This document shows positions 12,213 to 42,467 of a stretch of 64,000 nucleotides of DNA, in pieces. Each line of letters begins with the position of its first letter. Positions within the stretch are counted from its first letter, which is position 1. Made by a program: the position numbers and the translations under genes. Source of the DNA: a virus (Duplodnaviria; Heunggongvirae; Uroviricota; Caudoviricetes); the IMG/VR virus record IMGVR_UViG_3300021431_000077, positions 103,062 through 167,061 of that record; one strand, 5' to 3'. The notes below the pieces were generated by a model, which saw only the letters and a list, made by a program, of their open reading frames with translations, was not told where the DNA came from and made no database searches.

Positions 12213-12454
12213 TGGGTTGCCTCACTCGGTTGATTCTATGCATTTAATATACCTAATTAAAAAGTCGGTGTCAAGCGGAGTTGGCAACTTTTTGTGTAAA
12301 AAATAGTTTACAACCCTCTGATGGGGACGGCGGGCAGAAGGTCAGGGGGTGATAACCCAAGTTGGATATTTTTTGGAGAAAAAAGAAAAGGCCCCCGATG
12401 GGCTAGAAACAACGGAGTCGCCATGGCAACAAACGCCCATCGGGGGAGGAGGAA

Positions 12455-12949
12455 TTACTTATAGAGTTCGGGGAACAGTTCGAGTTGTCCGTAGTTGTTC
12501 CTCTTGTGGAGAGGGGTTTTCTTCACGGGTTTCTTCTTGGTTTTCTTCTTGGTTTTGCCAGCGAGGGTTTTCAACCTGTTGACAACTTCCTTGCGAGTAA
12601 CGCCTTTGAGGGAAGCGTTGATGGCATCGCGGTCTTCGACGGACGTTCTGCGGACTGTGACGCGAACCTTGGTGGTTTCAGTCGGTTGGTAGGTGACTGT
12701 TGAAATCTTGGGGTTCGGACGGCGGCCACGGCTGAGGTAGTATTCGGCGAACGTGGTTTTGCCGTACATGGTGTCCACTTCTACATCACGGGTCTTGATG
12801 TTGTAGCCATCTTCACGCAGGTTGAAGATGCAGGCCGAAAGGCGGGTGATGTGGAGTTTTGTGAACGCATCAAGGGAAGTGATTTTTCCGTACTTCTTGA
12901 TGTATTGCAGGACTCTGTTCTTTTGGTTGTTTCTGTGTTCGGCACTCAT
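12455..12949 (-). CDS. winged helix-turn-helix protein (HTH_39-like) with basic C-terminal tail
   Basis: QKNRVLQYIKKYGKITSLDAFTKLHITRLSACIFNLREDGYNI pattern typical of phage HTH_39. Confidence 0.8.
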   Translation of the reverse strand: MSAEHRNNQKNRVLQYIKKYGKITSLDAFTKLHITRLSACIFNLREDGYNIKTRDVEVDTMYGKTTFAEYYLSRGRRPNPKISTVTYQPTETTKVRVTVRRTSVEDRDAINASLKGVTRKEVVNRLKTLAGKTKKKTKKKPVKKTPLHKRNNYGQLELFPELYK

Positions 12950-12951
12950 GG

Positions 12952-13557
12952 TTATTTCCCCTTTTTGTCTAATTCGATTTGTTTAAGAGTTGCTTCGATG
13001 GCCTGTATTACCTTGAAGTCGCAGATAGCGAACCCGAAAGCATTTTCGTCGCGGATTTTGAATGAGCCGTCGAGATAGACTTCGATAGGGGCGACCCCTT
13101 CTTCGTCATCATTTTTGGTTCGCCAGCAGTCGATGACCCAGCACTTGTCGTAAGTGTCGAAGTAATCGTGGCGGACTTCGGAGTAGAACGGATTTCCCTC
13201 GCCTTTTGATTCCTTGTACCACTTGGACATAAGGTCAACACAATCGTTGATGAAGCGCCTTGTAGGGCAGTTTGGAGTTTCCTTGAAGTTGAGGGCTTCA
13301 AGTTTGAGCAGGGTTTCCAAATGTTTCTTGATAAACTTTTTGTCAATGCCGTGTTCAACGAGGTGTGCAACGAGGTCTTTTTTCGTGATGACCACCGTGT
13401 TGTACTTGGCTACGATAGAGGCATAGACAATATCGTCGGAGACTTTAGAGATAAAGTCCGTGATGGTCTCTTTCGAGACCTGGGGGTTTGTTTTGAGGAA
13501 AGGGTTGACTTTCGTTTTCAGAAAATCAAAAAATGTTTTTGTAACTGTGATTGCCAT
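12952..13557 (-). CDS. hypothetical protein
   Basis: 201 aa, GGAG RBS, own promoter. Confidence 0.8.
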   Translation of the reverse strand: MAITVTKTFFDFLKTKVNPFLKTNPQVSKETITDFISKVSDDIVYASIVAKYNTVVITKKDLVAHLVEHGIDKKFIKKHLETLLKLEALNFKETPNCPTRRFINDCVDLMSKWYKESKGEGNPFYSEVRHDYFDTYDKCWVIDCWRTKNDDEEGVAPIEVYLDGSFKIRDENAFGFAICDFKVIQAIEATLKQIELDKKGK

Positions 13558-13636
13558 GATTGACTCCGTTTGTTGTTTCTGATGATAATATAGATAATTA
13601 AAGTCTTTTTGTCAAGAGAAAAAATGAAAAATATTT

Positions 13637-13945
13637 TTACATAATCAGTTCAATGATGTCGTAGCGGACATCGTAATCGCCGTGGTCAACGATAAGGGAG
13701 TCACAGGATTTCATCTTCTTGATGATTTCCTTGTCATTTTTGATGCTGTGACTGGAATCTGGGAGATGAATGTCGTATCCATCCTCAGTGCTTCCGTCAT
13801 CGTTCAACTCACAGTTATCCATTAAGGAATCGATGATGCTTTGCACCGCTGCATCGTGGCTGAAATACATATAGTTGACCCCTGCTTTCTCAATGGGGCT
13901 TCCGCTGCAGTGTTCAACAACGATAAATTGTCTTTTGTTTTTCAT
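13637..13945 (-). CDS. hypothetical acidic protein
   Basis: AGGAG RBS. Confidence 0.75.
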   Translation of the reverse strand: MKNKRQFIVVEHCSGSPIEKAGVNYMYFSHDAAVQSIIDSLMDNCELNDDGSTEDGYDIHLPDSSHSIKNDKEIIKKMKSCDSLIVDHGDYDVRYDIIELIM

Positions 13946-13960
13946 ACTGCACTCCTTTTA

Positions 13961-14113
13961 TTAAAATTCCTCGTCTTCGCCATCGAGGGTGAAACTGTCG
14001 ATGAAACTGGTGATGTTAGCGACAGCACGAGCCATGCGGCTATCCTCAGTTTCCTTTGCCTTTGCTTTGGCCTTGGTGGTGGAAGATTTCGTTTTCTTCA
14101 AGGTTTTCTTCAT
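13961..14113 (-). CDS. small hypothetical protein (basic N-terminus, acidic C-terminus)
   Basis: MKKTLKKTKSS..., GGAGG RBS. Confidence 0.6.
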   Translation of the reverse strand: MKKTLKKTKSSTTKAKAKAKETEDSRMARAVANITSFIDSFTLDGEDEEF

Positions 14114-14123
14114 GGTTGCCTCC

Positions 14124-14537
14124 TTAAATGTCGAACGAGTTGATGTGGAAAACATCTTTGCGTTCATTGACGAGAACATTGCAAAGATTAACATATTCGG
14201 GAACAGTCACCATGAGCGTGATGATAGAGCCGTCAGCAAGCCCCTGTTCAAGCATGGTGAGGAACTTCTTGCTACGCCCCATGCACTTGATGACTTTGCT
14301 ATCCCACGAGTTGTTATCGTCGGTGTTGTGACGGAACTCAATCGTGATGCTGTCGGGGCCGATACCTTTCTGCGGGTTAGCGTACGAGAACGACTGCTCG
14401 ATTTCAGTCATGATTTCGCTAGCGGCTTCCTTGCGGTCTTTTGTCGGGTTCCAAAACGAGGGTGCAATCAGGTCATCATCGCAGTGGTCTGTGGTGTAAC
14501 AAACGGCCTGATAATATGTAGTCTTTTTCTTTGCCAT
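14124..14537 (-). CDS. hypothetical protein
   Basis: True start MAKKKTT after the AAGGAG RBS (the track start lies upstream of the promoter). Confidence 0.8.
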   Translation of the reverse strand: MAKKKTTYYQAVCYTTDHCDDDLIAPSFWNPTKDRKEAASEIMTEIEQSFSYANPQKGIGPDSITIEFRHNTDDNNSWDSKVIKCMGRSKKFLTMLEQGLADGSIITLMVTVPEYVNLCNVLVNERKDVFHINSFDI

Positions 14538-14564
14538 AGTGGTCTCCTTTGTTTCTATGTTATA

Positions 14565-14631
14565 AATATACCTAATTAAATATGGGTTGTCAATACCTTT
14601 TCCAACTTTTTTGTGTAAAGATTTCGTTACA
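14565..14631 (-). promoter_or_regulatory. Representative cassette promoter (TTGACA-N17-TATATT) with upstream TGTAAA-N6-GTTACA palindrome; about 40 similar promoters between 9.5 and 43.4 kb
   Basis: aatata 14565-14570, tgtcaa 14588-14593, tgtaaa-gatttc-gttaca 14614-14631. The spacer core TTTAATTA(G/T/A/C) recurs, e.g. near 12.25, 13.6, 15.8, 16.5, 17.4, 18.2, 19.3, 20.2, 22.2, 23.3, 23.9, 24.9, 25.6, 27.7, 28.8, 29.9, 31.0, 31.7, 32.6, 33.3, 34.1, 34.5, 35.4, 36.3, 36.9, 37.8, 38.4, 39.0, 39.6, 40.2, 40.8, 41.1, 41.7 and 42.3 kb. Confidence 0.9.
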
Positions 14632-14757
14632 ACCTCTGGGCGGAAACCGTGGGGACAGCTGCAGTCGAGACTAGGGTGATAACCCAAGTTGGAAATCCAG
14701 ATGTGAACGAGAAAAAGCCCCACCCATTCGGGTGAGGCTCGGAGACAAGGGAAACTG

Positions 14758-15006
14758 TTAAACGGTAAATTCTTCTATGGTGAGGTTCACTTCTTCATCC
14801 TCGGCGGTGCGGAAACTATTGCCATACATACAGCCGTCGATAGTAAAGCCGTCCGCATCATTGGGGAATGTCTCTGTCAATATGTCGAAGATGCACTTTG
14901 CTGCCTTTTGACGGGTAGTGCACACTTCTGTGATAATCTCATGTGCGTCTTCGTGAGGGTGAAAGTGAAAGCCAGAAACAACAAAAATCTTTTTCTTTTC
15001 AGCCAT
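14758..15006 (-). CDS. hypothetical protein
   Basis: GGAGG RBS, ends at terminator. Confidence 0.75.
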   Translation of the reverse strand: MAEKKKIFVVSGFHFHPHEDAHEIITEVCTTRQKAAKCIFDILTETFPNDADGFTIDGCMYGNSFRTAEDEEVNLTIEEFTV

Positions 15007-15015
15007 GTTTGCCTC

Positions 15016-15759
15016 CTAATCGTTAAGGAATCCGAGGTCATCATAGAACTCTTGGTCGAGAGAGGGTTCGGGAGCGAGTTTGAACCCGTTTGCTTCCATG
15101 ATTTCATCAGGGATATGGGCAATAGAACGAGGCGGGAAATTAGCCACGATGTAGTCAGCTTCCGTTTCCTTGCCATCAGGGTCAGGTTCATAGTCATAAC
15201 CTGTTCCATACTGTTCGAGGTCAGCCCTAATTGCTTCGGGGTCTTTTGCAAACCAATCGAGGGCGGCCTGCTTAATCTTCGGCTTAAACGCATTAAAGAG
15301 TTGCTTGTAGAACTTGTTGCTTCCCTCTTTTTCCGTGATTTCCTCTGTGTCAATGTCCACGAGGAAATCATTGAAGTAATCATATTCGTGTTGCCCATCA
15401 GCATCCTTGATGGAGATACGGATAAGATAGGTTTTAATCTTCTTGTTGCTAACTACTTCGCCATCGAGGAGGATTGCAAGTTCCTGTGCATCCTCATCAG
15501 TCGGGAGTGCGATTTCAAGGTGGAAGATTGTGGTAAAACAATCGTCGCAACATTCGTCTTCACGCTTAATCTTGATTTCGTATTTGCGACTATTCTTCGG
15601 TTCAGTTTCGTCGAACTCTTCGCACTCAGAATCCCAAGTGTAGAACTTGGAAAGAAATTCCTTGACTTCATTTCGTGCTTCATCAAAGTCGAAAAGGTCA
15701 TTGTGTTCTGTAAAGATGCCGTTGATACCGATGTATTCTTCGTCTATGTGAAAGCTCAT
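15016..15759 (-). CDS. hypothetical acidic protein
   Basis: Start MSFHIDEE after AAGGAG. Confidence 0.8.
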   Translation of the reverse strand: MSFHIDEEYIGINGIFTEHNDLFDFDEARNEVKEFLSKFYTWDSECEEFDETEPKNSRKYEIKIKREDECCDDCFTTIFHLEIALPTDEDAQELAILLDGEVVSNKKIKTYLIRISIKDADGQHEYDYFNDFLVDIDTEEITEKEGSNKFYKQLFNAFKPKIKQAALDWFAKDPEAIRADLEQYGTGYDYEPDPDGKETEADYIVANFPPRSIAHIPDEIMEANGFKLAPEPSLDQEFYDDLGFLND

Positions 15760-15835
15760 GCTTGTCTCCTTTGTTTCTATGCTATAAATATACCTAATTA
15801 AATCGGTATTGTCAAGGGATTTTTTGTAAACTTTT

Positions 15836-16090
15836 CTAAACAACTTTGTAAAGGTCGATGTAGTTGTCGCATCCATCGAGATTCTTGCGGTCGATGGACT
15901 TCTTTACATACCACTTTTGCTTTCCAACCATAACAGGGCGGCAACCCTTGATGGGAGCATAGTCAGGGTCATTGGAAGACAAAGATGCTCCTAACCCTTT
16001 CTTGAAATGCTTTACGATGCTCTTGGCATCCTTGTCCATCAGTTCCTTGATGTCTTCGGGGTCATTGTAGTAAGCGATGTGCTGAACCAT
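15836..16090 (-). CDS. hypothetical protein
   Basis: AAGGAG RBS. Confidence 0.75.
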   Translation of the reverse strand: MVQHIAYYNDPEDIKELMDKDAKSIVKHFKKGLGASLSSNDPDYAPIKGCRPVMVGKQKWYVKKSIDRKNLDGCDNYIDLYKVV

Positions 16091-16112
16091 AATGTTGTCT
16101 CCTTTGTTTCTG

Positions 16113-16436
16113 TTAATTCATGCGTTGCTCTGTGTCTGCTACATCTTCGTCGAAGTACATAGAGCCTAGCCAGCGTGCGGTTTCCCACGCATCCATTACG
16201 AACAGGTCGTATGCCCCACCGCTTGTATCGTCGGAGGGGTCAACAAAGCCGTCAAACTCAGGGATATAACGAACGGTCGTAACATGGTTTGGCCCTATGG
16301 TTACTTCCTTGGTGTAGGTTGCCGTTCTATCGCTCAGGTAGTCCATCGTTCCAGACTGGTCTTTGGCTGTGTAGTCAACCCCCATCTTGGTCAAGTAGGA
16401 TATGAGTTCATCATATTGGTTCTCTGTGGGTTCCAT
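16113..16436 (-). CDS. hypothetical protein
   Basis: Start MEPTENQ after AAGGAG. Confidence 0.75.
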   Translation of the reverse strand: MEPTENQYDELISYLTKMGVDYTAKDQSGTMDYLSDRTATYTKEVTIGPNHVTTVRYIPEFDGFVDPSDDTSGGAYDLFVMDAWETARWLGSMYFDEDVADTEQRMN

Positions 16437-16655
16437 GAGAGGCTCCTTTGTTTCTATGATATAAATATACATAATTAAATTAGTTTCGTCAATAGGGTTT
16501 CCAACATTTTTGTGTAAAGATTTCGTTACACCCTCTGGGCGGAAACCGTCGGGGACAGCTGCAGTCGAGGATAGGGTGATAACCCAAGTTGGAAATCCAG
16601 AGGTAAACAAGAAAAAGCCCCACCCATTCGGGTGAGGCTCGGAGACAAGGGAAAC

Positions 16656-17336
16656 TTACTTCTTAAAGAAATCGGCAGGGACGGTATGCTTCACGATGTC
16701 GAACTCTACACAATCGTCGGCATCGTTATAGGCGGAGATACAGTAGCCCTTCATGCAGTCCTTTGATGTCACCTTTTCATTTTCGAGATTTTCCTGTTCG
16801 ATGTAGTCGTTTACTTCGCTGGCAATGAACTTTGCTGCCTTCTGCTTTTTCTTGAACACATCCGTGTAGCGGTTGTTGTTGATTTCACCGCCTATACGAG
16901 CGTAGGCGACGACGGTAAAGAATGTGATGTTCTTGGCCTTGGTGGTCTTGGGCTTCTTTGGAGCATAGTCAGCCAAGTGTTCAAGGAACTCTTCAAGGTT
17001 GTCCATATCGTCGGCAGAGGGCATAGAGAACTCCATCTGGAACTCCTTGCCCATCTTGTCACCATCAGCCTTTTCTCCTTTTCTACCACCGAGGCGTTCA
17101 ACGAGGGTTACACCATCGGTGCCTGCATAGTAGTTGAAATGGTGCTTACGCTTGTTGCAAGTGAGGGTGACTTCACAGAAGATGTATTCGTCACCTTCCA
17201 CATCGTTCACACGCAATTCTTCAATTTCACAGGTTGTGCCTTTTGGTGCGTGCTTCTTAACAAAGCGCTTGAACCATGTTTCATTAGAACGGCATTCCCT
17301 GATGATAACCAATGTAAGGTTCTTTGTATCAAGCAT
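16656..17336 (-). CDS. hypothetical two-domain protein
   Basis: AAGGAG RBS, own promoter. Confidence 0.8.
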   Translation of the reverse strand: MLDTKNLTLVIIRECRSNETWFKRFVKKHAPKGTTCEIEELRVNDVEGDEYIFCEVTLTCNKRKHHFNYYAGTDGVTLVERLGGRKGEKADGDKMGKEFQMEFSMPSADDMDNLEEFLEHLADYAPKKPKTTKAKNITFFTVVAYARIGGEINNNRYTDVFKKKQKAAKFIASEVNDYIEQENLENEKVTSKDCMKGYCISAYNDADDCVEFDIVKHTVPADFFKK

Positions 17337-17410
17337 TTTTGTCTCCTTTGTTATGCCTATAATATACCTAATTAAAAGATGGTTGTCAAGTGATTTTTTG
17401 TAAAGTTTTT

Positions 17411-17548
17411 TTAAACCTTTTGGGCAACAACGAGTTCGCCATCCTTGATTACAAGCATGGGTGCGGAAAAGTTGGTTTGAACCTTGGTTTCAACCGAGTT
17501 GCTTTCCGCATAGTCGTCACGGAACCAATAAGAATGCCATTTGAGCAT
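17411..17548 (-). CDS. small hypothetical protein (45 aa; not in ORF track)
   Basis: MLKWHSYWFRDDY...AQKV, AAGGAG RBS. Confidence 0.65.
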   Translation of the reverse strand: MLKWHSYWFRDDYAESNSVETKVQTNFSAPMLVIKDGELVVAQKV

Positions 17549-17580
17549 AATATCTCCTTTTTGAAAAAATTAAATTTATT

Positions 17581-17946
17581 TTAGAGTTCGGCGAGTTCCT
17601 TAACTTTCTCGCAAATTTCTGTGGTGTCGAGGTTGCAGGATTTCATATGGATGTCATTGGTCGTGGTTCGTGTAATTGTAACAGCGCACGCACTGCCATT
17701 ATTCATGAACACGAATTTGAACGACCATCTTCCGTGTGCAGGGATGTTTTCAAGGATGTATGCGATTGTAACGGACAAGGTGTCGTCGAGGCGTACAGCG
17801 TTGGAGAAAACCTTTCTTGGGTAAACTCCCTGTGGGGTAACTTTTCCGAGAGAAGCGAATCCGTAAAGTGCGAGGTCTTCAACCGCTCTTGATGTTGCAT
17901 CGAATGCTTTTTTAATGTCTTTGGTTACGTTGATTTTTGCAGGCAT
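17581..17946 (-). CDS. hypothetical protein
   Basis: Start MPAKINV after GGAG. Confidence 0.75.
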   Translation of the reverse strand: MPAKINVTKDIKKAFDATSRAVEDLALYGFASLGKVTPQGVYPRKVFSNAVRLDDTLSVTIAYILENIPAHGRWSFKFVFMNNGSACAVTITRTTTNDIHMKSCNLDTTEICEKVKELAEL

Positions 17947-17950
17947 GGTT

Positions 17951-18187
17951 TTATCTCCCTTGCTTGATAAGTTCCTGGTTTTCGAGGTAAAGGCGTTCAA
18001 GGGCCGCATTGTATTTGGCTTCATTTTCCGCCTCAATTTGCTCTCTTTGTTGAACCCTTGCAGGGTCAGGATTCTTGTTTGTCGCAATGTAAAGCAACAC
18101 TACTGCAAGCACTATCATTATAAGCAAGATGACCTGCGAAATGAAGTGTGTGATGCTCTCCAAGAGGTTGCCAATGAACGTGAACAT
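17951..18187 (-). CDS. small membrane protein
   Basis: TM segment VILLIMIVLAVVLLYIA. Confidence 0.75.
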   Translation of the reverse strand: MFTFIGNLLESITHFISQVILLIMIVLAVVLLYIATNKNPDPARVQQREQIEAENEAKYNAALERLYLENQELIKQGR

Positions 18188-18417
18188 GGTTGACTCCTTT
18201 GTTTCTATGTTCTAAATATACATAATTAAAAGGGAGTTGTCAATAGGGTTTAACAACTTTTTGTGTAAACATTTCGTTACCAACTGGGCGGAAACCCGAG
18301 AAGAACTGGCAGCCCCAGAACAGGGGTGATAACCCAAGTTGGAAATCTGGTTGCAAACCCGTAGAAAGCCCCACCCTTTCGGGTGAGGCTTGATGGAATA
18401 ACATTATGAAAGAAAAC

Positions 18418-18855
18418 TTACTTGTTCGGGTTTGCTTCGCCGAACTTGTGAAGGAAGTGATTTGACTTGCGAGAACATGGGTAGGGGGTACGCTTTCCAT
18501 TCCTGTCTTGCAAGAAGCACTTTACTGGAACATTTACCCATTCCGAGGTGTTTGGCTCGTTATTGACAACATCGTAAAAGCACGCACCCATCGCATTTTT
18601 AGCCGTGCCGAACACGGAAGAATCCATAAGGTTCAAGTCGAACATATGACCGTCAACCTTTCCGCTGTGCCATGTATCTTCGAGGTCGGGATAACCGCCT
18701 ATACCATTTGAGATTTTAGGGTTCCACTTGATAGTTGGTTTACCTGGACGGACGATTTCATATAAGTAGTTGTCTTTGCGAAAACGGGTCTTGATAAGAT
18801 GCAACTCCGCCCCTTTGAAATAATCCGCATACCACGGCTTTGTGTTATTTGCCAT
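18418..18855 (-). CDS. hypothetical protein
   Basis: RBS, ends at terminator. Confidence 0.8.
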   Translation of the reverse strand: MANNTKPWYADYFKGAELHLIKTRFRKDNYLYEIVRPGKPTIKWNPKISNGIGGYPDLEDTWHSGKVDGHMFDLNLMDSSVFGTAKNAMGACFYDVVNNEPNTSEWVNVPVKCFLQDRNGKRTPYPCSRKSNHFLHKFGEANPNK

Positions 18856-18869
18856 AGGTTTCCCCCTTG

Positions 18870-19283
18870 TTATAAAGTGTTAATCTTTTCGATTCCGTTG
18901 GAAATAGCCAAGTCAAGGCTAACCATCTTTGATGCAAGTGTTTCAGTAACCTTTGCAACAGTTTTCAGGTAAGCCTTGCGTTTCTTTACGGTGTCCAGTT
19001 CGTCAATCGGCACATCTTCTTTAATGACAAGGATGCCTTTGTCGTCGTAACTGCTCCAAACGAAAATGAGAACTTCCAAGCGAGAACCCTTGCGGACTTC
19101 CCTGATGCGGGCTTCGGCTTCGCTACCATTATTGTTTACCGTATAAAGGATGCGGCGGTCACGTTCATGTTCGCAAATGTGTTCGCTCTTGTCAATGAGC
19201 GAAATGTTCCATTCGGTGCTTACCCCAGTTCCTTTCGTGGTGTCGCCACCGAAGATAGAAAGTGCATGATGTTCTTTTGCCAT
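18870..19283 (-). CDS. hypothetical protein
   Basis: AAGGAG RBS, own promoter. Confidence 0.8.
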   Translation of the reverse strand: MAKEHHALSIFGGDTTKGTGVSTEWNISLIDKSEHICEHERDRRILYTVNNNGSEAEARIREVRKGSRLEVLIFVWSSYDDKGILVIKEDVPIDELDTVKKRKAYLKTVAKVTETLASKMVSLDLAISNGIEKINTL

Positions 19284-19381
19284 AGTTGTCTCCTTTGTTT
19301 CTATGCTATAAATATACCTAATTAAATTGGTGTTGTCAAGAGATTTTTTGTAAAAGTTTGGTTACGAGAGTTGAGACTACT

Positions 19382-20128
19382 TTAATCTAAAATATCTTGA
19401 ATGGTAGGGGTTTTGGAGAGGGAATGATTACCCTTGCGCCATTCGTCCATATCAATCGTGGTTACTCCGATAACCTTTCGTTCGCTGTAAATATGGTAAA
19501 CCCGATTGTTGACAAGAACCATGAACCATTGGTTAGCCTTGTGGTAAACGGCTCCCTTATATTCATTCGGCAGGGAATTAAATTCTTTTTTATTGAAAAT
19601 ACCGTACAAGCGTATAGGCATACTTACAGGGCATTTGCTACAGTCGATATGGTCGTTCGATTCGCCTGGGCAAGCATCACATCCAGCACTAATGAAGCCA
19701 CAATGACTGCAAACACATTGACCGAACTGAGAGCTAAACGAGGTGTCACACGACGGGCAAACATCGCTGAAACCGTCCTCGTGTACAGAAGCAAACTCGA
19801 TTGGTTTAACCAAGGCCACAATTACATTCACGGTGTAGGTGTCGCCTTTGTAGGTGCATTCCCATTCGCCGAGGTAATCGTCGCTTGCTGGCGTTCCTGC
19901 CACTTCGGAGAGCGCTCCGTATTCGTCAGGCTTAAAGAGGACGGCTTCTGTCCATGCGCCCTCATCTTCGTCCTGCGATGCAACGCACTTCACATCCATA
20001 ACCATCCCATCATCGAAAACGGCGGTGCGGGTGAGTTGTCCGTATTCAGGACGGGTCTTGTTGTCAAGAGCATCCTTGATTTCCTTGTATTCTTTTTTGG
20101 TTAGTGTGATTGTTGCGGTGTGCTTCAT
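19382..20128 (-). CDS. hypothetical protein with Cys-rich (Zn-binding) module
   Basis: CPSC...CSHC...CDAC...CSKC. Confidence 0.8.
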   Translation of the reverse strand: MKHTATITLTKKEYKEIKDALDNKTRPEYGQLTRTAVFDDGMVMDVKCVASQDEDEGAWTEAVLFKPDEYGALSEVAGTPASDDYLGEWECTYKGDTYTVNVIVALVKPIEFASVHEDGFSDVCPSCDTSFSSQFGQCVCSHCGFISAGCDACPGESNDHIDCSKCPVSMPIRLYGIFNKKEFNSLPNEYKGAVYHKANQWFMVLVNNRVYHIYSERKVIGVTTIDMDEWRKGNHSLSKTPTIQDILD

Positions 20129-20327
20129 AAGTGTCTCCTATTTATACCCTAAATATACATAATTAAATTGTTTTAGTCAATAGGGTTTCCAACATTTTTG
20201 TGTAAATTTTCATATACAAACTTCTGGTGGAAACTGTGGGGACGACGGGCCCCCAGTCAAGGGGTGATAACCCAAGTTGGAAATCAAAAAATAAAAAATA
20301 AAAATGCCCCCAATGAGGGGGCGCCTG

Positions 20328-33050: not shown

Positions 33051-33059
33051 AGTAAACCC

Positions 33060-34237: not shown

Positions 34238-34495
34238 CTACACCAAGTCCTTATTCACTTCAACGCAGTGTATCTCAAAGGTCAATGTATAGCTTACACT
34301 GTCTTCAATATAGCACGACCATTCGCTCTTTTCTTTTTCGTCAAATTCACCAATGTCTTCGTGTTCAGCAACACTTTCCCACGCAGAACGTATGGCTTTT
34401 TTGCAGTCATCAAACGAACCTGCCGCAATCACCGACACAGTAGAGCCGTCGCAATCTTCGGCACGCAGTTTAGTTGCAACATAGATTTTCTTCAT
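34238..34495 (-). CDS. hypothetical acidic protein
   Basis: Single-gene cassette. Confidence 0.8.
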   Translation of the reverse strand: MKKIYVATKLRAEDCDGSTVSVIAAGSFDDCKKAIRSAWESVAEHEDIGEFDEKEKSEWSCYIEDSVSYTLTFEIHCVEVNKDLV

Positions 34496-34706
34496 AGTTT
34501 ACCTCGTTGTTTCTATATATAATATACATAATTAAATCCATTTTGTCAATAGGGGATAGCAACTTTTTTCTGTCTGGAAGACACCGTGAATGGAATCTGG
34601 GGATTCGAGGATTCTGGTAACAGGGTGATAACCCAAGTTGAATATCGGGCTTGCCAGAAAGAAAGCCCCCTCTTGCGAGGGGACTTAGGAGTTGTATGAC
34701 ACAAAA

Positions 34707-34994
34707 TTACAAGTAAATATCAGTGATGTAAAAGTCGTTGCAATCTTCTTGTTCAAACAGACCAATCAAATCTCTGATACTATAACAATAATAAAAAATA
34801 TCCTCATCGTCATCGGGCAAGTTGTCTTCGCTATAATCACCCTCAATGGCAATGGTCTGTGTTAATTCGCTGTCATCGTCCGTGAAATGAACATTGACCT
34901 CAACACGGGTTAAACCTTGTTCTTCAACTTGTTTAATTTTTTCCTTTATTTCATCGGAAAGCTTATCATAAGTTTCTTGCGTTGCGTCTATCAT
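34707..34994 (-). CDS. hypothetical acidic protein
   Basis: Start MIDATQE overlapping the upstream stop. Confidence 0.7.
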   Translation of the reverse strand: MIDATQETYDKLSDEIKEKIKQVEEQGLTRVEVNVHFTDDDSELTQTIAIEGDYSEDNLPDDDEDIFYYCYSIRDLIGLFEQEDCNDFYITDIYL

Positions 34995-35392
34995 ATTAAA
35001 TACCTCACTTCTTCGGTATCGTAATTTACAACCGTTGAGACAATCCCAATGCCCGACCAAACACGCCACCACTTATGGCAGTTAGGACATTCCCTATCCT
35101 CTTCGCTAATGGTGACTTTCTTGCCCTCGGTGCGTTCGCCTGTCACCTTATCGTACTGGGGTATCGTGTAGTCAAAGTTGCGGGCGGCGAACTCCAACGA
35201 ATCATCGGTAGCTCCGCAGAACGGACACTTGCAGGCTTCTTGGTGAGACTTCAAGGCTAATGCGTGCATGACAATCTGCTTGCCAGCACAAAAGCCGTTT
35301 ACTCGGACTTCCCACCGCCCTTTGTAGAACTTGTTTCGTCTCTTGTCAAAGGACTTGTTTACCTCTTGCGAGGTGTAAGGTAGATGTGACAT
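34991..35392 (-). CDS. hypothetical Zn-ribbon protein
   Basis: CPFC...CPNC. Confidence 0.8.
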   Translation of the reverse strand: MSHLPYTSQEVNKSFDKRRNKFYKGRWEVRVNGFCAGKQIVMHALALKSHQEACKCPFCGATDDSLEFAARNFDYTIPQYDKVTGERTEGKKVTISEEDRECPNCHKWWRVWSGIGIVSTVVNYDTEEVRYLI

Positions 35393-35610
35393 ATTTACTT
35401 CTCCGTTGTGTTGTTTTCGTTGTATTATAAATATACCTAATTAAATTCAGTTTGTCAAGCCCTAAACAGAAAAAACTGGAAAGCTCGTGATTCTCCTGGT
35501 TCCAGCGGCAGAGGGGTGATAACCCAAGTTGAAAATATGGTGGCACACGAGAAGAAACCCCCACCCATTCGGGCAGGGGCATTCAACGAGGTAGGAGGTA
35601 AGCTTGTTCG

Positions 35611-35874
35611 TCAGCTCGGTTCGTCAGCGAGGAACCATTCACCGCAGAAGTCGCCCTCTTCGTTGAGCTTGTCAACAAGATTGTCTGCATCCTCACGGCT
35701 TAAATCCACCTTGAAGTTGATTTGTGCAGGGGAACCATCCACCCACTGTTCATTGGCGGCAATTCCTACAACATGTTGTTCAAGGTGCTTTCTAATCATT
35801 ATGCAAAGATAATTGGCAAAGCCATTCGCATTATCCTTGATTCCATTCTTGACGTTCAAAAAGATTTCTGTCAT
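35611..35874 (-). CDS. hypothetical protein
   Basis: Cassette gene 2. Confidence 0.75.
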   Translation of the reverse strand: MTEIFLNVKNGIKDNANGFANYLCIMIRKHLEQHVVGIAANEQWVDGSPAQINFKVDLSREDADNLVDKLNEEGDFCGEWFLADEPS

Positions 35875-35884
35875 ACGATACCCC

Positions 35885-36298
35885 TTATAGTTTCTCTTTC
35901 TTGGTTACAAAAGTAGCAATAGGTTCAGACTCTTTCTTGCTTCCTTTTACATAGATAAAACACTTGCCAACCGTATATCTCTTGGTGTAATCCTCGCACC
36001 ATTTCAATGCTTCGGCAAGTGAATCAAAGCTATCGGTTTCGTGAAACTCACCGTTTTCATATCTGATACAGAACTCGCATAGGAAAGCCAATCCGTCAAG
36101 TTGGATGAGCCGACCACCGACAAGAAGAAACTCCTTGCCACAATGCCCATTCGCAGGGTCGCACAAGTAGTCTAGTTTCTCTATGGGGTAATCCTTGCCT
36201 AGTGTTTTCTTGGTAAGTTCCCATTGGCTTTCATCAAAGGTAAGTTGTGCGGTCTTCGTTTTGAAAGGGGCAATTACTGTTATTCGTCCAAAGTTCAT
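35885..36298 (-). CDS. hypothetical protein
   Basis: Start MNFGRIT after GGAGG. Confidence 0.75.
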   Translation of the reverse strand: MNFGRITVIAPFKTKTAQLTFDESQWELTKKTLGKDYPIEKLDYLCDPANGHCGKEFLLVGGRLIQLDGLAFLCEFCIRYENGEFHETDSFDSLAEALKWCEDYTKRYTVGKCFIYVKGSKKESEPIATFVTKKEKL

Positions 36299-36544
36299 TT
36301 TAACCTCCGCTGTTCTATATATAATATAGCTAATTAAATTCAGTTTGTCAATAGCCAACATAAAAAAATTTACTGGAAATGAGATGACCCGACGAGATGA
36401 CCCCTCGACGCTGCTCCAGTGTAGGGGTGATAACCCAAGTTGAATATCGGGGAGGGAATCGAAGAAAACCCTCGTCGTTCGACGAGGGCTGTAATGCGGA
36501 AAGTGTAGGGGTGTTTGAGTCTTGGTTAATACCGCATTACCTTT

Positions 36545-36877
36545 CTAAACTCCGTGTTCCTTCGTAAGATAGAACATATCCCACGAACAATTACGCATAG
36601 CCTTCATCTGCTTGCGAGTTGCGGTGTCCTTCCAAAGCACTTTGTGTTCATTCCCGAACATAATGTAGAGAACGGTCTGGGCGAGTATTCGTGAGACCAC
36701 AATATCTGTGAAGTCTCCGTTAAGAAGTTCGGGGTGCTTTTCAAGGCACTCCTTAATCGCACCCCTTACCTTATTCATGTGGATAGAATCCTTGACGAAA
36801 TCAGTCGCATTATCCACAATGGACTTACGATTGAACTCTGTTAAAGACTTCTTGCTAATCTTGATTGCTTTTGCCAT
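36545..36877 (-). CDS. hypothetical protein
   Basis: Single-gene cassette. Confidence 0.8.
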   Translation of the reverse strand: MAKAIKISKKSLTEFNRKSIVDNATDFVKDSIHMNKVRGAIKECLEKHPELLNGDFTDIVVSRILAQTVLYIMFGNEHKVLWKDTATRKQMKAMRNCSWDMFYLTKEHGV

Positions 36878-37130
36878 AGTGATACCTCGTTTGTTTCTAT
36901 ATAATATAGTTAATTAAAATAGGTTTGTCAAGGGGGTGTATCAATTTTTTGTTGGAAAAATCTACTGCCAACCCTGTCGTCAAGACCCCTGTTGGGACTG
37001 CTGGTCCCCAGTGGAGGGGTGATAACCCAAGTTGAAAACCCAGCAGGAACAAAAAAGAACACCGCCGTTCGGCGGTGGGAGCAGTTAGGTGAAAGTTTAG
37101 GGGTGTTAAGTTTGTTTCCTAACCGCTCTT

Positions 37131-37748
37131 TTAAACGAATTTGTTAAAGAATGCTTTGACATTTTCAATTCCCGCCTTAACGGATTCAAGATACTTGTCA
37201 AACAATACTTCACTAATCATATACAAATGACCAATTTTATCCCAATGCCTTTTATGCTTTCCCTTGAACCCGCAGGTTTCCACGTCAGAACTTCTGAACA
37301 AGATAATATGGCTGTTGCTTACCTTACAGAATGTAAGCCATATATATCCCTCGCAGGAATAATAACCACCCTTGACATTACGGAAAGCAGGAATGACAAT
37401 CGGATTTTTGCCATAGCAAAAAGTATTCAATTCCTTATCCCACTTTGCCTTTGAACGCAGGAACAAGTCCTTATGAACAATAGCATAGGTAATATAACTC
37501 TTGCCGTTTCCACTTTCCCATAATGCCTTATACTCAACATTGACTATTTGATAGTCATTGCCAAATGATTCCCGAATAGTCTTGTCAAGTGCAAGCAATT
37601 CATTTGCGGTGAACTCCGTTTCAATCAGTTCATCACCCTTTTTTTGCTCAAAGGACATAGGGATTTGCCTTGCCTGTGCGTGTTCAATAGAGTAGTGAGA
37701 CTTAATGTAGGATTCTCTTTGGCGAGAGTATTTAATGATATGTGCCAT
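37131..37748 (-). CDS. hypothetical protein
   Basis: Single-gene cassette. Confidence 0.8.
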   Translation of the reverse strand: MAHIIKYSRQRESYIKSHYSIEHAQARQIPMSFEQKKGDELIETEFTANELLALDKTIRESFGNDYQIVNVEYKALWESGNGKSYITYAIVHKDLFLRSKAKWDKELNTFCYGKNPIVIPAFRNVKGGYYSCEGYIWLTFCKVSNSHIILFRSSDVETCGFKGKHKRHWDKIGHLYMISEVLFDKYLESVKAGIENVKAFFNKFV

Positions 37749-37973
37749 GTTATTACCTCGTTGTTTGTATCTATAATATAGATAATTAAATCTGTTTTGT
37801 CAAGTATCTAATTAAATTATTTTCATAATCCGCACGGATTATTCCCCTGAACCCTGACGACCGACGGAAGCTCCAGTCAGGACTAGGGTGATAACCCAAG
37901 TTGAATATCGGGTGGAAACAAAGTTTAACCCCCTCTTGCGAGGGGGCTTTGTCGTCAGGAGTAAAGCGACGGA

Positions 37974-38327
37974 TTACGAATTGAAATCTGCAAGATAGCA
38001 GGAAATTACTTTCGCCATTTTGCGAGCAGGGAGAACTGGAATGTCCGAAGCCACCCCCTTGATTGTCAAGGTGGCATATTCCTTGCCATGGTTGTCAATG
38101 CCGTAGGTAATGCTTGCATCGCTGTGAGACCATTTGGTATCAGTCTTGTGCGAGTTGTTTGGCTTGAAAATGGTCTCAACGCACTTGGGAATTACATCGC
38201 TCTTCTGTTTCAAGCGAGTTCCATACTTGAACTCAAATACGAGGTAGCAAAGAACTTCCCTCATGTGGTTGGAGAAATCCTTGAACTTCTTTTGCGTGGT
38301 GGTGTCCATTGTCTTGTATCTAGGCAT
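37974..38327 (-). CDS. hypothetical protein
   Basis: Single-gene cassette. Confidence 0.8.
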   Translation of the reverse strand: MPRYKTMDTTTQKKFKDFSNHMREVLCYLVFEFKYGTRLKQKSDVIPKCVETIFKPNNSHKTDTKWSHSDASITYGIDNHGKEYATLTIKGVASDIPVLPARKMAKVISCYLADFNS

Positions 38328-38567
38328 TGTGTTGCTCCGTTGTTAGGTTGTTTGTTGTTTCTATGTTCCTAATATACATAATTAAATTTAATTTGTCAAG
38401 TATTTTTTGTAACATTTTATCAACATTCTATACCCGAACCCCGAGCGTCAGCGTCAGAGCAGCCCGCGTGCGAAGGCGGAAAGGGTGATAACCCATGTTG
38501 AATATCGGGGCAGAGCGTAAAAAATGCCCCCGTAAAGGGGGCGGCACTTCATCAGGGAGGTAAAAAC

Positions 38568-38930
38568 TTAATCCCACCAATCAGGCTTAGGGTCAGACGA
38601 TTTTTCAAGCGCTTCGCTCAACTTCATTCCGACAGGGATACTAATGTCTCGTTCAACGGCAGGGCAACCGAATTGTCTCAGTTTGGAGAGTTCAGAGAGG
38701 TCAATATCGCCATACTCGCTGAAATCTGGGTTTGCGTTGTTCACCACATAGCCGTAAGCAAGGTTTTCGTTATCCTCGTAGCCTTCAAGGATATACCACG
38801 TCAATGCGTGGGTGAAAGGGCAGAACAGACGGCAGGCGACCTTTGCTTCGCCTTTCAATCCGTCTTGCGAACCGCTAGGGTGTTTCTTCAAGAACTTCTT
38901 GACTTGTGCAGTGATAAGTTTCTGTGCCAT
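38568..38930 (-). CDS. DUF2958 family protein
   Basis: LITAQVKK...LFCPFTHALTWYILEG...YGYV...EYGDIDLSEL...VERD matches the DUF2958 pattern. Confidence 0.8.
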   Translation of the reverse strand: MAQKLITAQVKKFLKKHPSGSQDGLKGEAKVACRLFCPFTHALTWYILEGYEDNENLAYGYVVNNANPDFSEYGDIDLSELSKLRQFGCPAVERDISIPVGMKLSEALEKSSDPKPDWWD

Positions 38931-39133
38931 TTTATTACCTCGTTGTTTGTTTATGTATATAATATAGTTAATTAAATTAGGCTTGTCAATAGGGTTTCAA
39001 ACATTTTTGTGTAAACATTTCGTTACAACCCGAATGAAACCGTCGGGGACAGCTGCAGTCGAGGCTGGGGTGATAACCCAAGTTGAATATCGGGGCGACG
39101 AAAAAAGAAATCCCCTCTTGCGAGGGGCGGTGG

Positions 39134-39367
39134 TTAGTCTTCGTTAATGTAGCACTTTGAATCTTGAACGGCTCCGCAGTGAACGCATTGCTGAATGTAT
39201 TGATGCCCTATTACTCTGTCGCCTCTTGTTATAGTATAGTCCTTGACCGTTTTCCATTGGTGCCTGCATTGATTGGACATCTTCTTGATTGTAATGATGA
39301 TTGCTCCAACGATAGCGGAAACCCCACATACGCCCAATGAGACGATGAAGATTGTTAAGGGGAGCAT
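39134..39367 (-). CDS. small membrane protein with C-terminal CxxC
   Basis: TM segment then CRHQW...CVHC. Confidence 0.7.
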   Translation of the reverse strand: MLPLTIFIVSLGVCGVSAIVGAIIITIKKMSNQCRHQWKTVKDYTITRGDRVIGHQYIQQCVHCGAVQDSKCYINED

Positions 39368-39368
39368 A

Positions 39369-39560
39369 TTATACCCCCTCTGCCATAAACTTACGGAACA
39401 ATTCCATGCGATAGTCTTCCCGCTTTTGGCGTGAGATAAACCCACCCTCTACACGGAACTTGTCCACCCACCGCTCTGCACCTTCCATTACATCACCCCT
39501 TGGGTGCTTCTTTAATTCCTCAATATCTTTGGGAGTCAGTTTAACATTGATGAAAGCCAT
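39369..39560 (-). CDS. hypothetical protein
   Basis: GAGG RBS, own promoter. Confidence 0.75.
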   Translation of the reverse strand: MAFINVKLTPKDIEELKKHPRGDVMEGAERWVDKFRVEGGFISRQKREDYRMELFRKFMAEGV

Positions 39561-39761
39561 ATTATTACCTCGCTGTTTCTATATATAATATAGTTAATTA
39601 AATCTAGTTTGTCAAGCCATTTGAGAACTTTTTTGCCTGTCGTCAGACCCCTGTCGGAATCCTGGTTCGCCAGTGTAGGGGTGATAACCCAAGTTGAACG
39701 GACGACAGACGAAAAAAGAAACCCCCTCTTGCGAGGGGGCACGGAGCAGGACACAAATTTC

Positions 39762-39953
39762 TTATGCGGCTTTTTTCTTTTCCTTTTCCTTATAGCAGGC
39801 GGCACAAATCCAACCGCTTGCTATCTCTTTGTAGTAGGTCTTCTTGCCACAGCCTTGACAGCGGTGCTTCCTATCCCAAGCCTTTTGGTCAAAGTCCTTA
39901 CTGCGTTCAAACGAAGGCTCATCCACAACCTTTGGTATATCTATCCTATCCAT
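39762..39953 (-). CDS. small Zn-ribbon protein
   Basis: CQGC...CAAC. Confidence 0.65.
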   Translation of the reverse strand: MDRIDIPKVVDEPSFERSKDFDQKAWDRKHRCQGCGKKTYYKEIASGWICAACYKEKEKKKAA

Positions 39954-39963
39954 TGCTCACCCC

Positions 39964-40146
39964 CTATTCAAACGAGCCACATTCGCTCATCAAATTGGTA
40001 ATCAAGTGTGCTTGATAAGGGAAGTGATACCCACCCACCGCAACACTCTTGTCGCCAATAAAGGCACAGAGAACACCGCATTCCTTTTTCAGTTCAAGTC
40101 GGCTATCTACCTTCTTGCACTCAGCCACAAATTCGTTCAAACCCAT
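39964..40146 (-). CDS. hypothetical protein
   Basis: Cassette gene 1. Confidence 0.7.
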   Translation of the reverse strand: MGLNEFVAECKKVDSRLELKKECGVLCAFIGDKSVAVGGYHFPYQAHLITNLMSECGSFE

Positions 40147-40357
40147 TTTTACCTACCTTTTTAAGTGAGTTCTATATAATATATAGTAAATTAAATCCGT
40201 TTTGTCAAGTGGTCTAATAAAAAAATTGGCAGCAGACCATTCAGAGGAGACGGCGGGCGAGCTGGGAAAGGGTGATAACCTAAGTTGAATATCGGGCGGG
40301 GCGACAAAAAGAGGGTTGCAACCGAGTTGCAACCCTCCACAACGGAAGTAAGTAAAC

Positions 40358-40735
40358 TTATCTGATTTTAGGAATACTATTTTCCAAATCGCTAATGGAA
40401 CTATAATTGTTTGTACCACCATGACTATCCTTGATGCTAGTCGCAGTGCGGAGCAACACGCCACGCATCGGCCCACTTGCGTTCACATCAATGGTCATGC
40501 CACGGAAGTCACCATAGTTGTAATAGACAATCTGTCCATCGGCACGCTGAATGTAGCCGTAAACATAGTAGTGACCTGTCCTTTGGAGCAGAACCTTTGC
40601 ACCAATCTTCTTGCATACCCTTTTCATAAGGTTGTGGAAAGAGAGTGCTAGACTCATTCCCATAGAGCCACGGGGCATCGTAGTTCCGCTTTCGTTAAAG
40701 AAAACACCTTGCCATTTGCGTTTGAAAGTCTGCAT
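40358..40735 (-). CDS. hypothetical protein
   Basis: Single-gene cassette, GAGG RBS. Confidence 0.75.
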   Translation of the reverse strand: MQTFKRKWQGVFFNESGTTMPRGSMGMSLALSFHNLMKRVCKKIGAKVLLQRTGHYYVYGYIQRADGQIVYYNYGDFRGMTIDVNASGPMRGVLLRTATSIKDSHGGTNNYSSISDLENSIPKIR

Positions 40736-40967
40736 TGTTTTAACCTCGTCTTGATACCTTTAATATACCTAATTAAAAGCATCTTGTCAAGCCCTACCCA
40801 TCATTTTCTTTGTAAACTTTCGCTTACATATCCCGCCGACCCACCCAGCGGCAGCCCCCAGCCTCCGCCGGGCAGCCAGCAGGTAAGGGTGATAACCCAG
40901 GTTGAACATCCGCGTGTTGCCAACAGAAAGGGTCGCAACCGCTGGTCGCAACCCTGGTGAGAGCAGG

Positions 40968-41108
40968 CTACTTCGCACCTACGTGAACTAACAGACCTTC
41001 CCACAAGAAGTAGAAGACCATGAAGTAGGCTGCGAGCACTCCAAGTCCTTCGCCTATGCTTACGAGAACACCTTTATCCTCTCTCTTTTCCTTGACCTTG
41101 ATACCCAT
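40968..41108 (-). CDS. 46-aa membrane micro-protein (not in ORF track)
   Basis: MGIKVKEKREDKGVLVSIGEGLGVLAAYFMVFYFLWEGLLVHVGAK; GGAGG RBS; sole ORF of its cassette. Confidence 0.75.
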   Translation of the reverse strand: MGIKVKEKREDKGVLVSIGEGLGVLAAYFMVFYFLWEGLLVHVGAK

Positions 41109-41366
41109 TTGAAACCTCCGTTGTTGTTCTATATATAATATACACAATTAAAACTACAATGTCAATAGGTTATTAACAATTCTGTGTAAACATTCGGTTA
41201 CAAACCGCCGCCCCAACATCGTTTCCAATCCTGACGATGACCCGACTCCTGATGACCGTCGAATCTCCAGTCAGGACTAGGGTGATAACCCAAGTTGAAT
41301 ATCGGGGTGGGGTCAGGAAAAAACCCATAGGGTTATACCCTATGGGCTAGCAACCGATGACCTAGA

Positions 41367-41495
41367 CTACTTCCCCAAACACTGGAACATAGCCGTATGA
41401 CCGAACGCCAACGGAACCAAGTCCTTGAAGCAGCCTATCGCAGTCGGCTCGTATTCGCCTTTCTCGTTCTTCAAGTAGAGCATATACTTCTTCAT
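41367..41495 (-). CDS. 42-aa micro-protein
   Basis: MKKYMLYLKNEKGEYEP...; ATGA overlap. Confidence 0.65.
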   Translation of the reverse strand: MKKYMLYLKNEKGEYEPTAIGCFKDLVPLAFGHTAMFQCLGK

Positions 41496-41605
41496 TTCGC
41501 TACCGCCTTTACCAAGTAGATTAAACCGATGATTGCATAGAGGAACCAAATAGGTGGAAACAGAACACCGAGAACCACCAATACGATGAGGACTATCAGT
41601 TTCAT
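41492..41605 (-). CDS. 37-aa membrane micro-protein (not in ORF track)
   Basis: MKLIVLIVLVVLGVLFPPIWFLYAIIGLIYLVKAVAK; ATGA overlaps at both ends. Confidence 0.7.
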   Translation of the reverse strand: MKLIVLIVLVVLGVLFPPIWFLYAIIGLIYLVKAVAK

Positions 41606-41685
41606 TTCCTGCTCCCCTTGTAAATGCGTAAGCCCATCTTTATTGCAGTGAGTTTGTCTTTCGTTGTAGGTTTCTTCTGTGCCAT
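41602..41685 (-). CDS. 27-aa basic micro-peptide, KMGLxIY family copy 1
   Basis: MAQKKPTTKDKLTAIKMGLRIYKGSRK; GAGG RBS directly after promoter. Confidence 0.8.
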   Translation of the reverse strand: MAQKKPTTKDKLTAIKMGLRIYKGSRK

Positions 41686-41867
41686 ATTATACCTCGTTGT
41701 TTGTATCTATAATATAGTTAATTAAATCTCGTTTGTCAAGGGGGACAGCGAATTTTTTATCGAAAGCCGCACGCTTCCCTCTGGGACTAGGGTGATAACC
41801 CAAGTTGAATATCGGAGGGAAAACAAAAGATTGGCGGTCTCTTTCGAAACCGCCTTGATAAAGTCCG

Positions 41868-42257
41868 TTAGGAAAATGCCACTTCAATAACCTTTTCCTT
41901 GATGACAGCCAATGCGTCAGTCAGCAGGGGCATACTGAACTCGTGCCTATCCTTGTCTATGCAGGTTATCTCGTTCGTGTAGGTATTAACCCTAACCATA
42001 TACTTCAACGGCTTTCTGCGAGGGTTCGCAACTACACCGAACATCATAGTGAACGCAAAGTCGCCATTGTGTTCTGGTATAGGTTCAAACCCTCGTGCCG
42101 TCATACGATGAAGACCGAATATCTCACGGCATAAATTCTCTTGGTCATACATATCACGAATTGTATCAGCCAACTCGTTCAACTTCGCCACAACATTATC
42201 CATAATATCTATGTTAGCAACGTTAGCGATGAACTCTTTTTGCTTTCTCTGTGCCAT
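41868..42257 (-). CDS. hypothetical protein
   Basis: Single-gene cassette. Confidence 0.8.
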   Translation of the reverse strand: MAQRKQKEFIANVANIDIMDNVVAKLNELADTIRDMYDQENLCREIFGLHRMTARGFEPIPEHNGDFAFTMMFGVVANPRRKPLKYMVRVNTYTNEITCIDKDRHEFSMPLLTDALAVIKEKVIEVAFS

Positions 42258-42467
42258 AAGTTACTCCTTTGTTTCACTTAAAATATACATAATTAAATCC
42301 GTTTTGTCAAGGATTTAATCAACTTTATTTATACCTTTTACTATGGGGTGGTATCACGCCCGCAGCTCCAGTCAGGACTAGGGTGATAACCTAAGTTGAA
42401 AAACATAAAAGAAAAAATAAAAAAGGTTTAACCCTACGGGTTAAACCCTTGTTTTTATCGGAGTTAA

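Follow-up and report, generated by a model that had tools for sequence, protein, structure and literature searches.

The window analysed here comprises 64,000 nucleotides (nt) of viral DNA, bases 103062-167061 of the 174.8-kb IMG/VR record IMGVR_UViG_3300021431_000077. The record, estimated to be 42% complete, is a fragment of an uncultivated rumen phage with a whole genome of roughly 420 kb. The window contains an array of 38 junctions between minus-strand gene cassettes, each carrying one copy of a 20-nt site, GGGTGATAACCCAAGTTGRA. In comparisons of the junctions with one another and with those of related phages, exchange between junctions was shown directly by replaced patches that match non-orthologous junctions. 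We consider it reasonably probable that the underlying process is homology-driven, short-patch ectopic gene conversion among modules resembling the promoter-early stem-loops (PeSLs) of T4-type phages, with the site as the main homology anchor.

The 18-mer GGGTGATAACCCAAGTTG was found 40 times with at most three mismatches (0.02 expected), and 38 of these occurrences were full copies in a single orientation from 8539 to 45134; the rest of the 174.8-kb record held no full copy outside this range. Each copy of GGGTGATAACCCAAGTTGRA lay between two minus-strand cassettes, with the predicted terminator of one cassette on one side and, on the other, the next cassette's GC-rich spacer, palindrome, and sigma70-type promoter. 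All credible open reading frames (ORFs) between the sites were on the minus strand. The array and its site copies are located as follows:

8539..45153, minus strand: junction array, 38 junctions separating minus-strand gene cassettes
8539..8558; 10172..10191; 12347..12366; 14674..14693; 16574..16593; 18324..18343; 20262..20281, plus strand: site copies
21172..21191; 22266..22285; 23364..23383; 23961..23980; 25021..25040; 25719..25738; 26874..26893, plus strand: site copies
27767..27786; 28898..28917; 29998..30017; 31054..31073; 31854..31873; 32701..32720; 33413..33432, plus strand: site copies
34160..34179; 34623..34642; 35514..35533; 36425..36444; 37017..37036; 37886..37905; 38483..38502; 39068..39087, plus strand: site copies
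39679..39698; 40270..40289; 40887..40906; 41280..41299; 41790..41809; 42381..42400; 42982..43001; 43514..43533, plus strand: site copies
45134..45153, plus strand: last site copy

Read on the gene strand, a junction consisted of the stop codon, a GC-rich hairpin with a T-run after it, the site, a spacer that is rich in GC and about 25-60 nt long, in many cases a palindrome, an A-rich stretch, the promoter, a ribosome-binding site, and the ATG. The terminator (a CCCC...GGGG hairpin and then the T-run) and the promoter (TTGACA-N17-TATAWT) were predicted from their sequences, and 35 matches to the consensus TTGACW-N16-18-TAWAWT were present on the gene strand within the array. The palindrome TGTAAA-N8-WACA occurred 22 times in the array and eight times elsewhere in the genome. 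The terminator and the -35 box were about 100-150 nt apart, with the site and the spacer lying between them. When 155 junctions from five related arrays were profiled by position, site positions 1-11, 13, 15-18, and 20 were essentially invariant, the terminator hairpin always started at +45 from the site start, and the GC content reached a maximum of 62-69% at -30..-11, compared with 44.6% for the array. One junction is given as an example:

14717..14738, minus strand: terminator GC hairpin
14614..14631, minus strand: palindrome TGTAAA-N8-WACA, upstream of the promoter
14565..14593, minus strand: promoter TTGACA-N17-TATATT

An earlier note on this DNA had described seven families of spacers shared by non-adjacent junctions, and all seven were found at the coordinates given there (junctions are named hereafter by the first base of their site):

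14651..14669; 16551..16569; 39045..39063, plus strand: spacer family A
22248..22265; 32683..32700; 34142..34159, plus strand: spacer family B
25697..25717; 27745..27765; 33391..33411; 35492..35512, plus strand: spacer family C
37871..37885; 41265..41279; 42366..42380, plus strand: spacer family D
26861..26873; 29985..29997; 38470..38482, plus strand: spacer family E
21158..21171; about 23351, plus strand: variants of spacer family E
12333..12346; 23947..23960, plus strand: spacer family F
22223..22241; 28855..28873; 31011..31029; 36973..36992; 39636..39654, plus strand: distal spacer module G

The same note had reported that junctions 14674 and 16574 are almost the same and that their terminator half recurs elsewhere with a different left spacer. 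Both observations were reproduced: the two junctions were near-identical across about 190 nt, and the terminator half was located at three positions:

14714..14756; 16614..16656, minus strand: shared half comprising the terminator and 3' untranslated region, 43 nt
25062..25104, minus strand: same terminator half behind a different site-proximal spacer

In an anchored comparison, 27 of 703 junction pairs shared a left stretch abutting the site, at scores never reached by the offset control, and the right flank was also common to only two of these 27 pairs (Fisher p=0.15). The similarity matrices of adjacent 25-nt segments were correlated inside the left half (Mantel r=0.24, p=0.0005, and r=0.13, p=0.003), and no correlation was observed across the site for the junctions of the window (Mantel r=0.06, p=0.09). 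The left and right halves of the 38 junctions are thus uncorrelated and assort independently, as the note had proposed, and simple whole-junction duplication is not favoured. Because only two paralogous families were found among 70 cassette ORFs, the cassettes that share spacers carry unrelated genes, which was also in line with the note.

Two readings that involve no exchange were weighed against these data, namely whole-junction tandem duplication followed by divergence, and convergence on a functional motif. Junctions 14674 and 16574 do resemble a whole-junction duplicate, and a few positions left of the site are weakly conserved (C at -8, G at -6/-5, and A at -2/-1). However, identical stretches of 19-24 nt were joined to different neighbours on both sides in a reticulate pattern, both halves coincided only in the two pairs mentioned above, and patches were replaced wholesale inside flanks that were 97-100% identical between relatives. 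An origin of the families without exchange is therefore very improbable.

Related phages made the replaced patches visible. Within IMG/VR, the exact site was found in G001 and G002, both complete genomes (419 and 422 kb), in a 279-kb fragment (G003), and in smaller pieces, and it was also present in more than 119 rumen-type metagenome contigs; a megablast comparison with the phage collection gave no DNA-level match to any phage record. The related arrays (G001, G002, G003, and G005) were broadly syntenic with that of the window, with cassettes gained, lost, and rearranged. The record start and end of G001 and G002 (loci L030-L035) overlapped by 107-110 nt inside the array, which probably reflects an assembly that broke in repeats rather than a genuine genome end.

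For 68 junction pairs with an orthologous left gene, the promoter block was 0.81-0.84 identical, whereas the site-proximal 30 nt were 0.60-0.68 identical, compared with 0.52-0.58 for unrelated junctions. The low proximal identity, 0.65 against a null of about 0.56, persisted in 37 pairs in which both neighbouring genes were conserved. The promoters and genes on either side stayed 90-100% identical in related phages. Patch borders were sharp within flanks of 97-100% identity (e.g., junctions 12347, 25021, and 25719 compared with G001), and the patches replaced wholesale in relatives measured 12-60 nt on the left and 4-35 nt on the right of the site. The proximal 24 nt were compared for 120 junctions that have an orthologue elsewhere; they were closer by at least four positions to a non-orthologous junction in 72 and to the orthologue in 16, and the non-orthologous match reached at least 20 of 24 positions in 40. 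Non-orthologous sharing of the proximal segment was observed for 1.66% within genomes versus 0.54% between genomes, a threefold difference. The variable positions of the site (12, 14, 19, and 21) followed lineage and region, and orthologous junctions agreed in them no better than random pairs. As the site variants are distributed by lineage and region rather than by locus, they indicate concerted evolution.

The most recent events were examined in contigs that were 96.5-99.2% identical to the window and covered about 53.7 kb of the array. The mismatch rate in these contigs was 7.8% at -10..-1, 9.0% at +20..+29, and 5.1% at +30..+39, against a baseline of 1.8% overall and 0.9% in site positions 1-10. 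Nineteen of 55 patches with multiple differences fell within the zone from -40 to +45, which represents 8.7% of the aligned bases (p about 1e-7), although not all of these counts are independent because some of the relatives overlap (L081/L126 and L108/L075). Left patches spanned -14..0, and right patches extended from site position 18 to +25..+39. For example, at junction 37017, two 98%-identical relatives had -12..-1, site position 19, and +18..+30 replaced together, in one tract that spans the site and for which a junction of the same type as 29998 is donor-like. The left patch so acquired, CGAAGGCGGAAA, extends the CTGCTGG common to junctions 37017 and 29998, which places a microhomology at the tract edge. 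At junction 14674, one relative carried a patch of the family F type in place of family A.

Whole cassettes were also exchanged. At junction 32701, one 98%-identical relative had an extra 505-nt cassette (with an 89-aa ORF) flanked by a direct repeat of about 48 nt, consisting of the site and the next 28 nt. The internal ends of high-identity alignments clustered at the site (0 and +19..+23), on the stop-codon side (+61..+82), and on the promoter/ATG side (-125..-160). Switch points of cassette adjacency fell inside the site, the four bases after it (typically AATC) being counted with it, in four of eight cases from the left and in 10 of 14 from the right, the latter figure being inflated since the left spacer varies anyway.

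The breakpoints were not confined to the site. Site-abutting shared stretches ended mostly 12-27 nt to the left of it and, on the right, at +20..+31 or +40..+43 past its 3' end. When two non-orthologous junctions shared the proximal segment, they also had the next segment to the left in common in 11-24% of cases and the right segment in 4-5%, so that linkage was low throughout the junction and not only across the site. The earlier note had placed recombination or gene conversion at or near the site. Exchange between junctions and the looser location hold, with recent differences peaking at both site edges, but the site is not the only breakpoint, as breaks also occurred 12-27 nt to its left and at the start and stop codons that bound the ORFs.

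The accumulation of the newest differences at the site edges bears on the rival reading that the site is the recognition sequence of a dedicated nicking or recombination enzyme, whose breaks are repaired from other junctions, resulting in targeted, integron-like shuffling of cassettes that each bring a promoter and a terminator. The position of the newest patches, close against both edges of the site, would follow from a targeted nick or cut there; in addition, the core is invariant, oriented, and restricted to the array, clean cassette switch points lie within the site, and the site contains a short inverted repeat (GGGT/ACCC) and a GTTGRAW word resembling the attC core. Against such an enzyme, breakpoints at ORF ends and 12-27 nt to the left of the site were about as frequent as at the site itself, some replaced tracts were away from the site, and the spacers followed neither neighbouring gene, unlike those of attC. 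Candidate enzymes were also lacking: G000-G003, including two complete genomes, had no match to the tyrosine recombinase family PF00589, which was matched in every control genome; serine recombinases were not found in the two complete relatives; and no nuclease or recombinase family was found among 62 array proteins. We therefore regard it as unlikely that the site is targeted by a strand-specific nicking or recombination activity of huge phages that deliberately seeds conversion and cassette exchange. If this were true, it would represent an integron-like diversification of early, probably anti-defence, genes that is independent of recombinase families, with a promoter and a terminator for each cassette. 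A resolvase-domain ORF (G003:C1:97131-97547, E 6e-23) was observed only in the 279-kb relative and probably belongs to an inserted element, since it is absent from the two complete genomes.

The short tracts and their ends raise another alternative, in which the patches arise when replication changes its template from one junction to another (copy choice), at microhomologies and at GC-rich spacers prone to form hairpins, rather than by strand invasion. Tracts of only 10-40 nt, tract ends at microhomologies of 4-7 nt, and the balanced G and C with some hairpin potential in the spacers are consistent with this. However, the spacers folded barely better than shuffled sequences (z -0.4 to -1.2), junctions that share sequence can be 24 kb apart, and the sequence outcome would be the same as that of conversion. 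We regard template switching as unlikely as the source of the mosaic.

Crossovers and tract ends lie in blocks of identity and the variable blocks assort between them, as expected of homology-driven exchange among about 40 diverged repeats, and we therefore read the pattern as short-patch ectopic gene conversion in which the site is the anchor of greatest length and constancy. According to this reading, the junctions would be PeSL-like regulatory modules that insulate some 38 early-type cassettes, mostly of orphan genes, in a phage with a genome of about 420 kb. The general recombination system of the phage would copy short tracts from one junction into another, and it would do so repeatedly because about 40 copies of the module share blocks of identity. 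These blocks would be above all the site, followed by the promoter block, the terminator A-run with the hairpin start, and microhomologies in the spacer. The tracts, 10-60 nt in length, would begin inside the site or next to it and run to the next homology patch. They would thereby overwrite the spacer, which is weakly constrained, and the sequence from site to terminator, giving rise to mosaic families, and larger exchanges between the same blocks would lead to the gain, loss, or swapping of entire cassettes or ORFs. A RecA/UvsX-like ORF is present in the complete relatives, and we infer that the process is conversion of the RecA/UvsX type. The GC peak left of the site coincides exactly with the zone of fastest turnover and could be caused by GC-biased conversion; the richness of the spacers in G and C may be a by-product of such a bias.

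Several points weigh against gene conversion anchored at the site. The invariance of the site, its single orientation, and the recent patches abutting both sides also fit a nicking or cutting enzyme. Many tracts have no more than 4-7 nt of homology available at their far end, little for classical conversion of the RecA type, and the overlap among close relatives noted above reduces the number of independent patches. Finally, the replaced tracts did not always touch the site; the proximal segment was kept and the distal one replaced in four pairs, and the reverse was observed in two. Given these tracts, conversion that always starts at the site was not supported.

On the gene strand, the site reads as two direct 10-nt words, GRTWWTCAAC and GGTTATCACC, 13 nt apart. 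The word family GGTTWTCAMC had 50 matches in the genome versus 0.9 in the shuffled-genome control, and clusters of words in the orientation opposite to that of the array sites were found at both ends of the array:

8137..8262, plus strand: left boundary, 10-nt words resembling the site (GGTTWTCAMC), oriented opposite to the array sites
8432..8452, minus strand: left boundary, the same GGTTWTCAMC words in array orientation
45253..45370, plus strand: right boundary, eight tandem GGTTTCCAAS words with a period of 13-14 nt, opposite orientation

The two-word structure of the site together with the boundary clusters is suggestive of a DNA-binding protein. The site would be a putative protein-binding element of two direct 10-nt words, held constant by selection. 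The iteron-like clusters bracketing the array may be a binding array of the regulator type or of the origin type.

An AAA+ protein of 428 aa (43764-45050, minus strand) is encoded at the right end of the array, where it adjoins the right-hand word cluster, and is conserved in all relatives. Its AlphaFold model (predicted local distance difference test, pLDDT, 84) best matched the MoxR-class ATPases NorQ and CbbQ, with a weaker match to McrB. A replication initiator acting on iterons was rejected, as the fold of the adjacent AAA+ protein is of the MoxR/NorQ/CbbQ type and not of the DnaA/Orc type. A search of IMG/VR with the AAA+ alignment retrieved only three relatives, all of them already known.

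The cassette ORFs span 8645-43247 (minus strand), and only 10 Pfam families were recognized among 62 array ORFs, including SpoVG (twice), DUF932, GP88, HTH_39, DUF1281_C (Api92-like), DUF2958, DUF4314, and AAA. Several of these cargo families typically occur in the leading regions of plasmids. Beyond the right end of the array lay, all on the minus strand, genes for an SSB (45719-46282), a GatB/YqeY-domain protein (49777-50454), a calcineurin-like phosphoesterase (57509-58417) that is possibly Mre11/gp47-like, and an AstE/AspA-like protein (60222-61070). The array looks like a store of early, host-takeover, or anti-defence genes of a 420-kb rumen phage family.

Some junctions lacked a sigma70-type promoter. 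Here, a conserved GGGACACCC-TTAATATAGGGTGGTATC word was present behind a small hairpin (42940-42981 and 45090-45133), with weaker copies left of sites 8539, 10172, and 42381. The word is kept in relatives as TTAATATAGGGGGGGATAC, occurs only twice in the 175-kb record, and may mark a different promoter class.

In certain junctions, the arms flanking the site were complementary over 6-8 nt (16529-16535/16598-16604, 36996-37002/37042-37048, and 39637-39644/39702-39709), and CTCGTG/CACGAG arms could pair at sites 33413 and 35514. Overall, the complementarity of left and right arms was slight (5.81 versus 5.29 for shuffled partners), and the pairing at 37017 was lost in one 98%-identical relative. 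A structured RNA or tRNA-like element over the spacer and the site was rejected because the fold z was only -0.4 to -1.2 and the arm pairing was weak and lost in this close relative. The junctions had no Rfam match at the gathering threshold or at E<=1, and ARAGORN detected no tRNA. A C-rich Rho-utilisation backup terminator was discarded, as G and C are balanced in the spacer, and an origin of the spacers elsewhere in the genome was discarded, as no spacer 15-mer occurs outside the array. A promoter for a T7-like phage RNA polymerase was set aside for want of a PF00940 match, which is weak evidence given that the control matched nowhere either.

The known systems most relevant to the array are PeSL cassettes, integrons, dispersed repeats, and the operator sets of global regulators. 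Integrons (IntI, attI, and attC) share with the array a one-directional series of small unrelated cassettes, a recurring site with a GTTRRRY-like word, and cassette content that varies between relatives with breaks in the site. In contrast, the array has no integrase. Each of its junctions has its own promoter and terminator, whereas integron cassettes are mostly promoterless and use a common promoter. The site is a fixed, duplex-type 20-mer with a weak fold z, unlike attC, which is an imperfect palindrome defined by structure (R''-L''/L'-R'), and the site-proximal spacer is linked to neither neighbouring gene. An integron was rejected, since no integrase or resolvase was found in the complete relatives and each of its defining features that could be tested was absent.

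Concerted evolution by ectopic gene conversion occurs in dispersed repeats, such as bacterial rRNA operons and intergenic repeats of the REP/BIME type (repetitive extragenic palindromic sequences and bacterial interspersed mosaic elements). The junctions resemble these in that copies within a genome are more alike than orthologues and in that short tracts lead to a mosaic; they differ in being viral regulatory DNA with diversified flanks and a fixed core. Global regulators have operator sets, for example, the KorB OB sites of IncP plasmids, and iteron arrays. A short sequence before many transcription units and related words in tandem at the region borders recall these by analogy only, and the site differs in keeping a fixed distance to the upstream terminator and not to the promoter.

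PeSL cassettes have been described in T4-type phages (Arbiol et al. 2010, PMC2839356; Comeau et al. 2014, PMC4122927). Their stem-loop is located in, on, or directly beside the promoter boxes, in five subclasses, and their crossovers were mapped between the -10 box and the ATG, in the loop, or beside the AT-rich region (PMC2839356). As in the array, terminator/sigma70-promoter modules are repeated before orphan genes in a hyperplastic region, relatives differ in that genes bounded by modules are inserted, deleted, or replaced, crossovers occur at several points of the module, and general homologous recombination on short homologies is the proposed driver. The junctions are PeSL-like in their organisation and, by prediction, work like PeSLs: a consensus sigma70-like promoter, a predicted GC-rich stem-loop in the same module, and a hyperplastic orphan-gene region with module-bounded insertions and deletions were all found. 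The exception is the position of the stem-loop, as the terminator lies about 100-150 nt from the -35 box and not at the promoter.

The array differs from PeSLs in further respects. The phage that carries the array is a rumen phage of about 420 kb. The module is about 200 nt long, and the invariant 20-nt site and the hypervariable GC-rich spacer separate its terminator and promoter. Patches of 10-60 nt are converted around the site, uncoupled from both genes, and the site variants evolve in concert. We did not find an invariant site, hypervariable GC-rich flanks following neither gene, or concerted evolution described for PeSLs. The array is a fine-grained variant of the promoter/terminator-mediated gene shuffling of T4-type phages, and it carries the PeSL idea over from these to huge phages. 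It is also a clear example, in viral regulatory DNA, of concerted evolution together with short-patch conversion. The more than 119 site-bearing rumen contigs make the population genetics of conversion tracts and GC bias feasible. At the nucleotide level, the array provides a view of a modular gene store with a constant core and fast-turning flanks, in which about 40 junctions are mutually homogenised and reshuffled and whole genes are swapped at the same seams.

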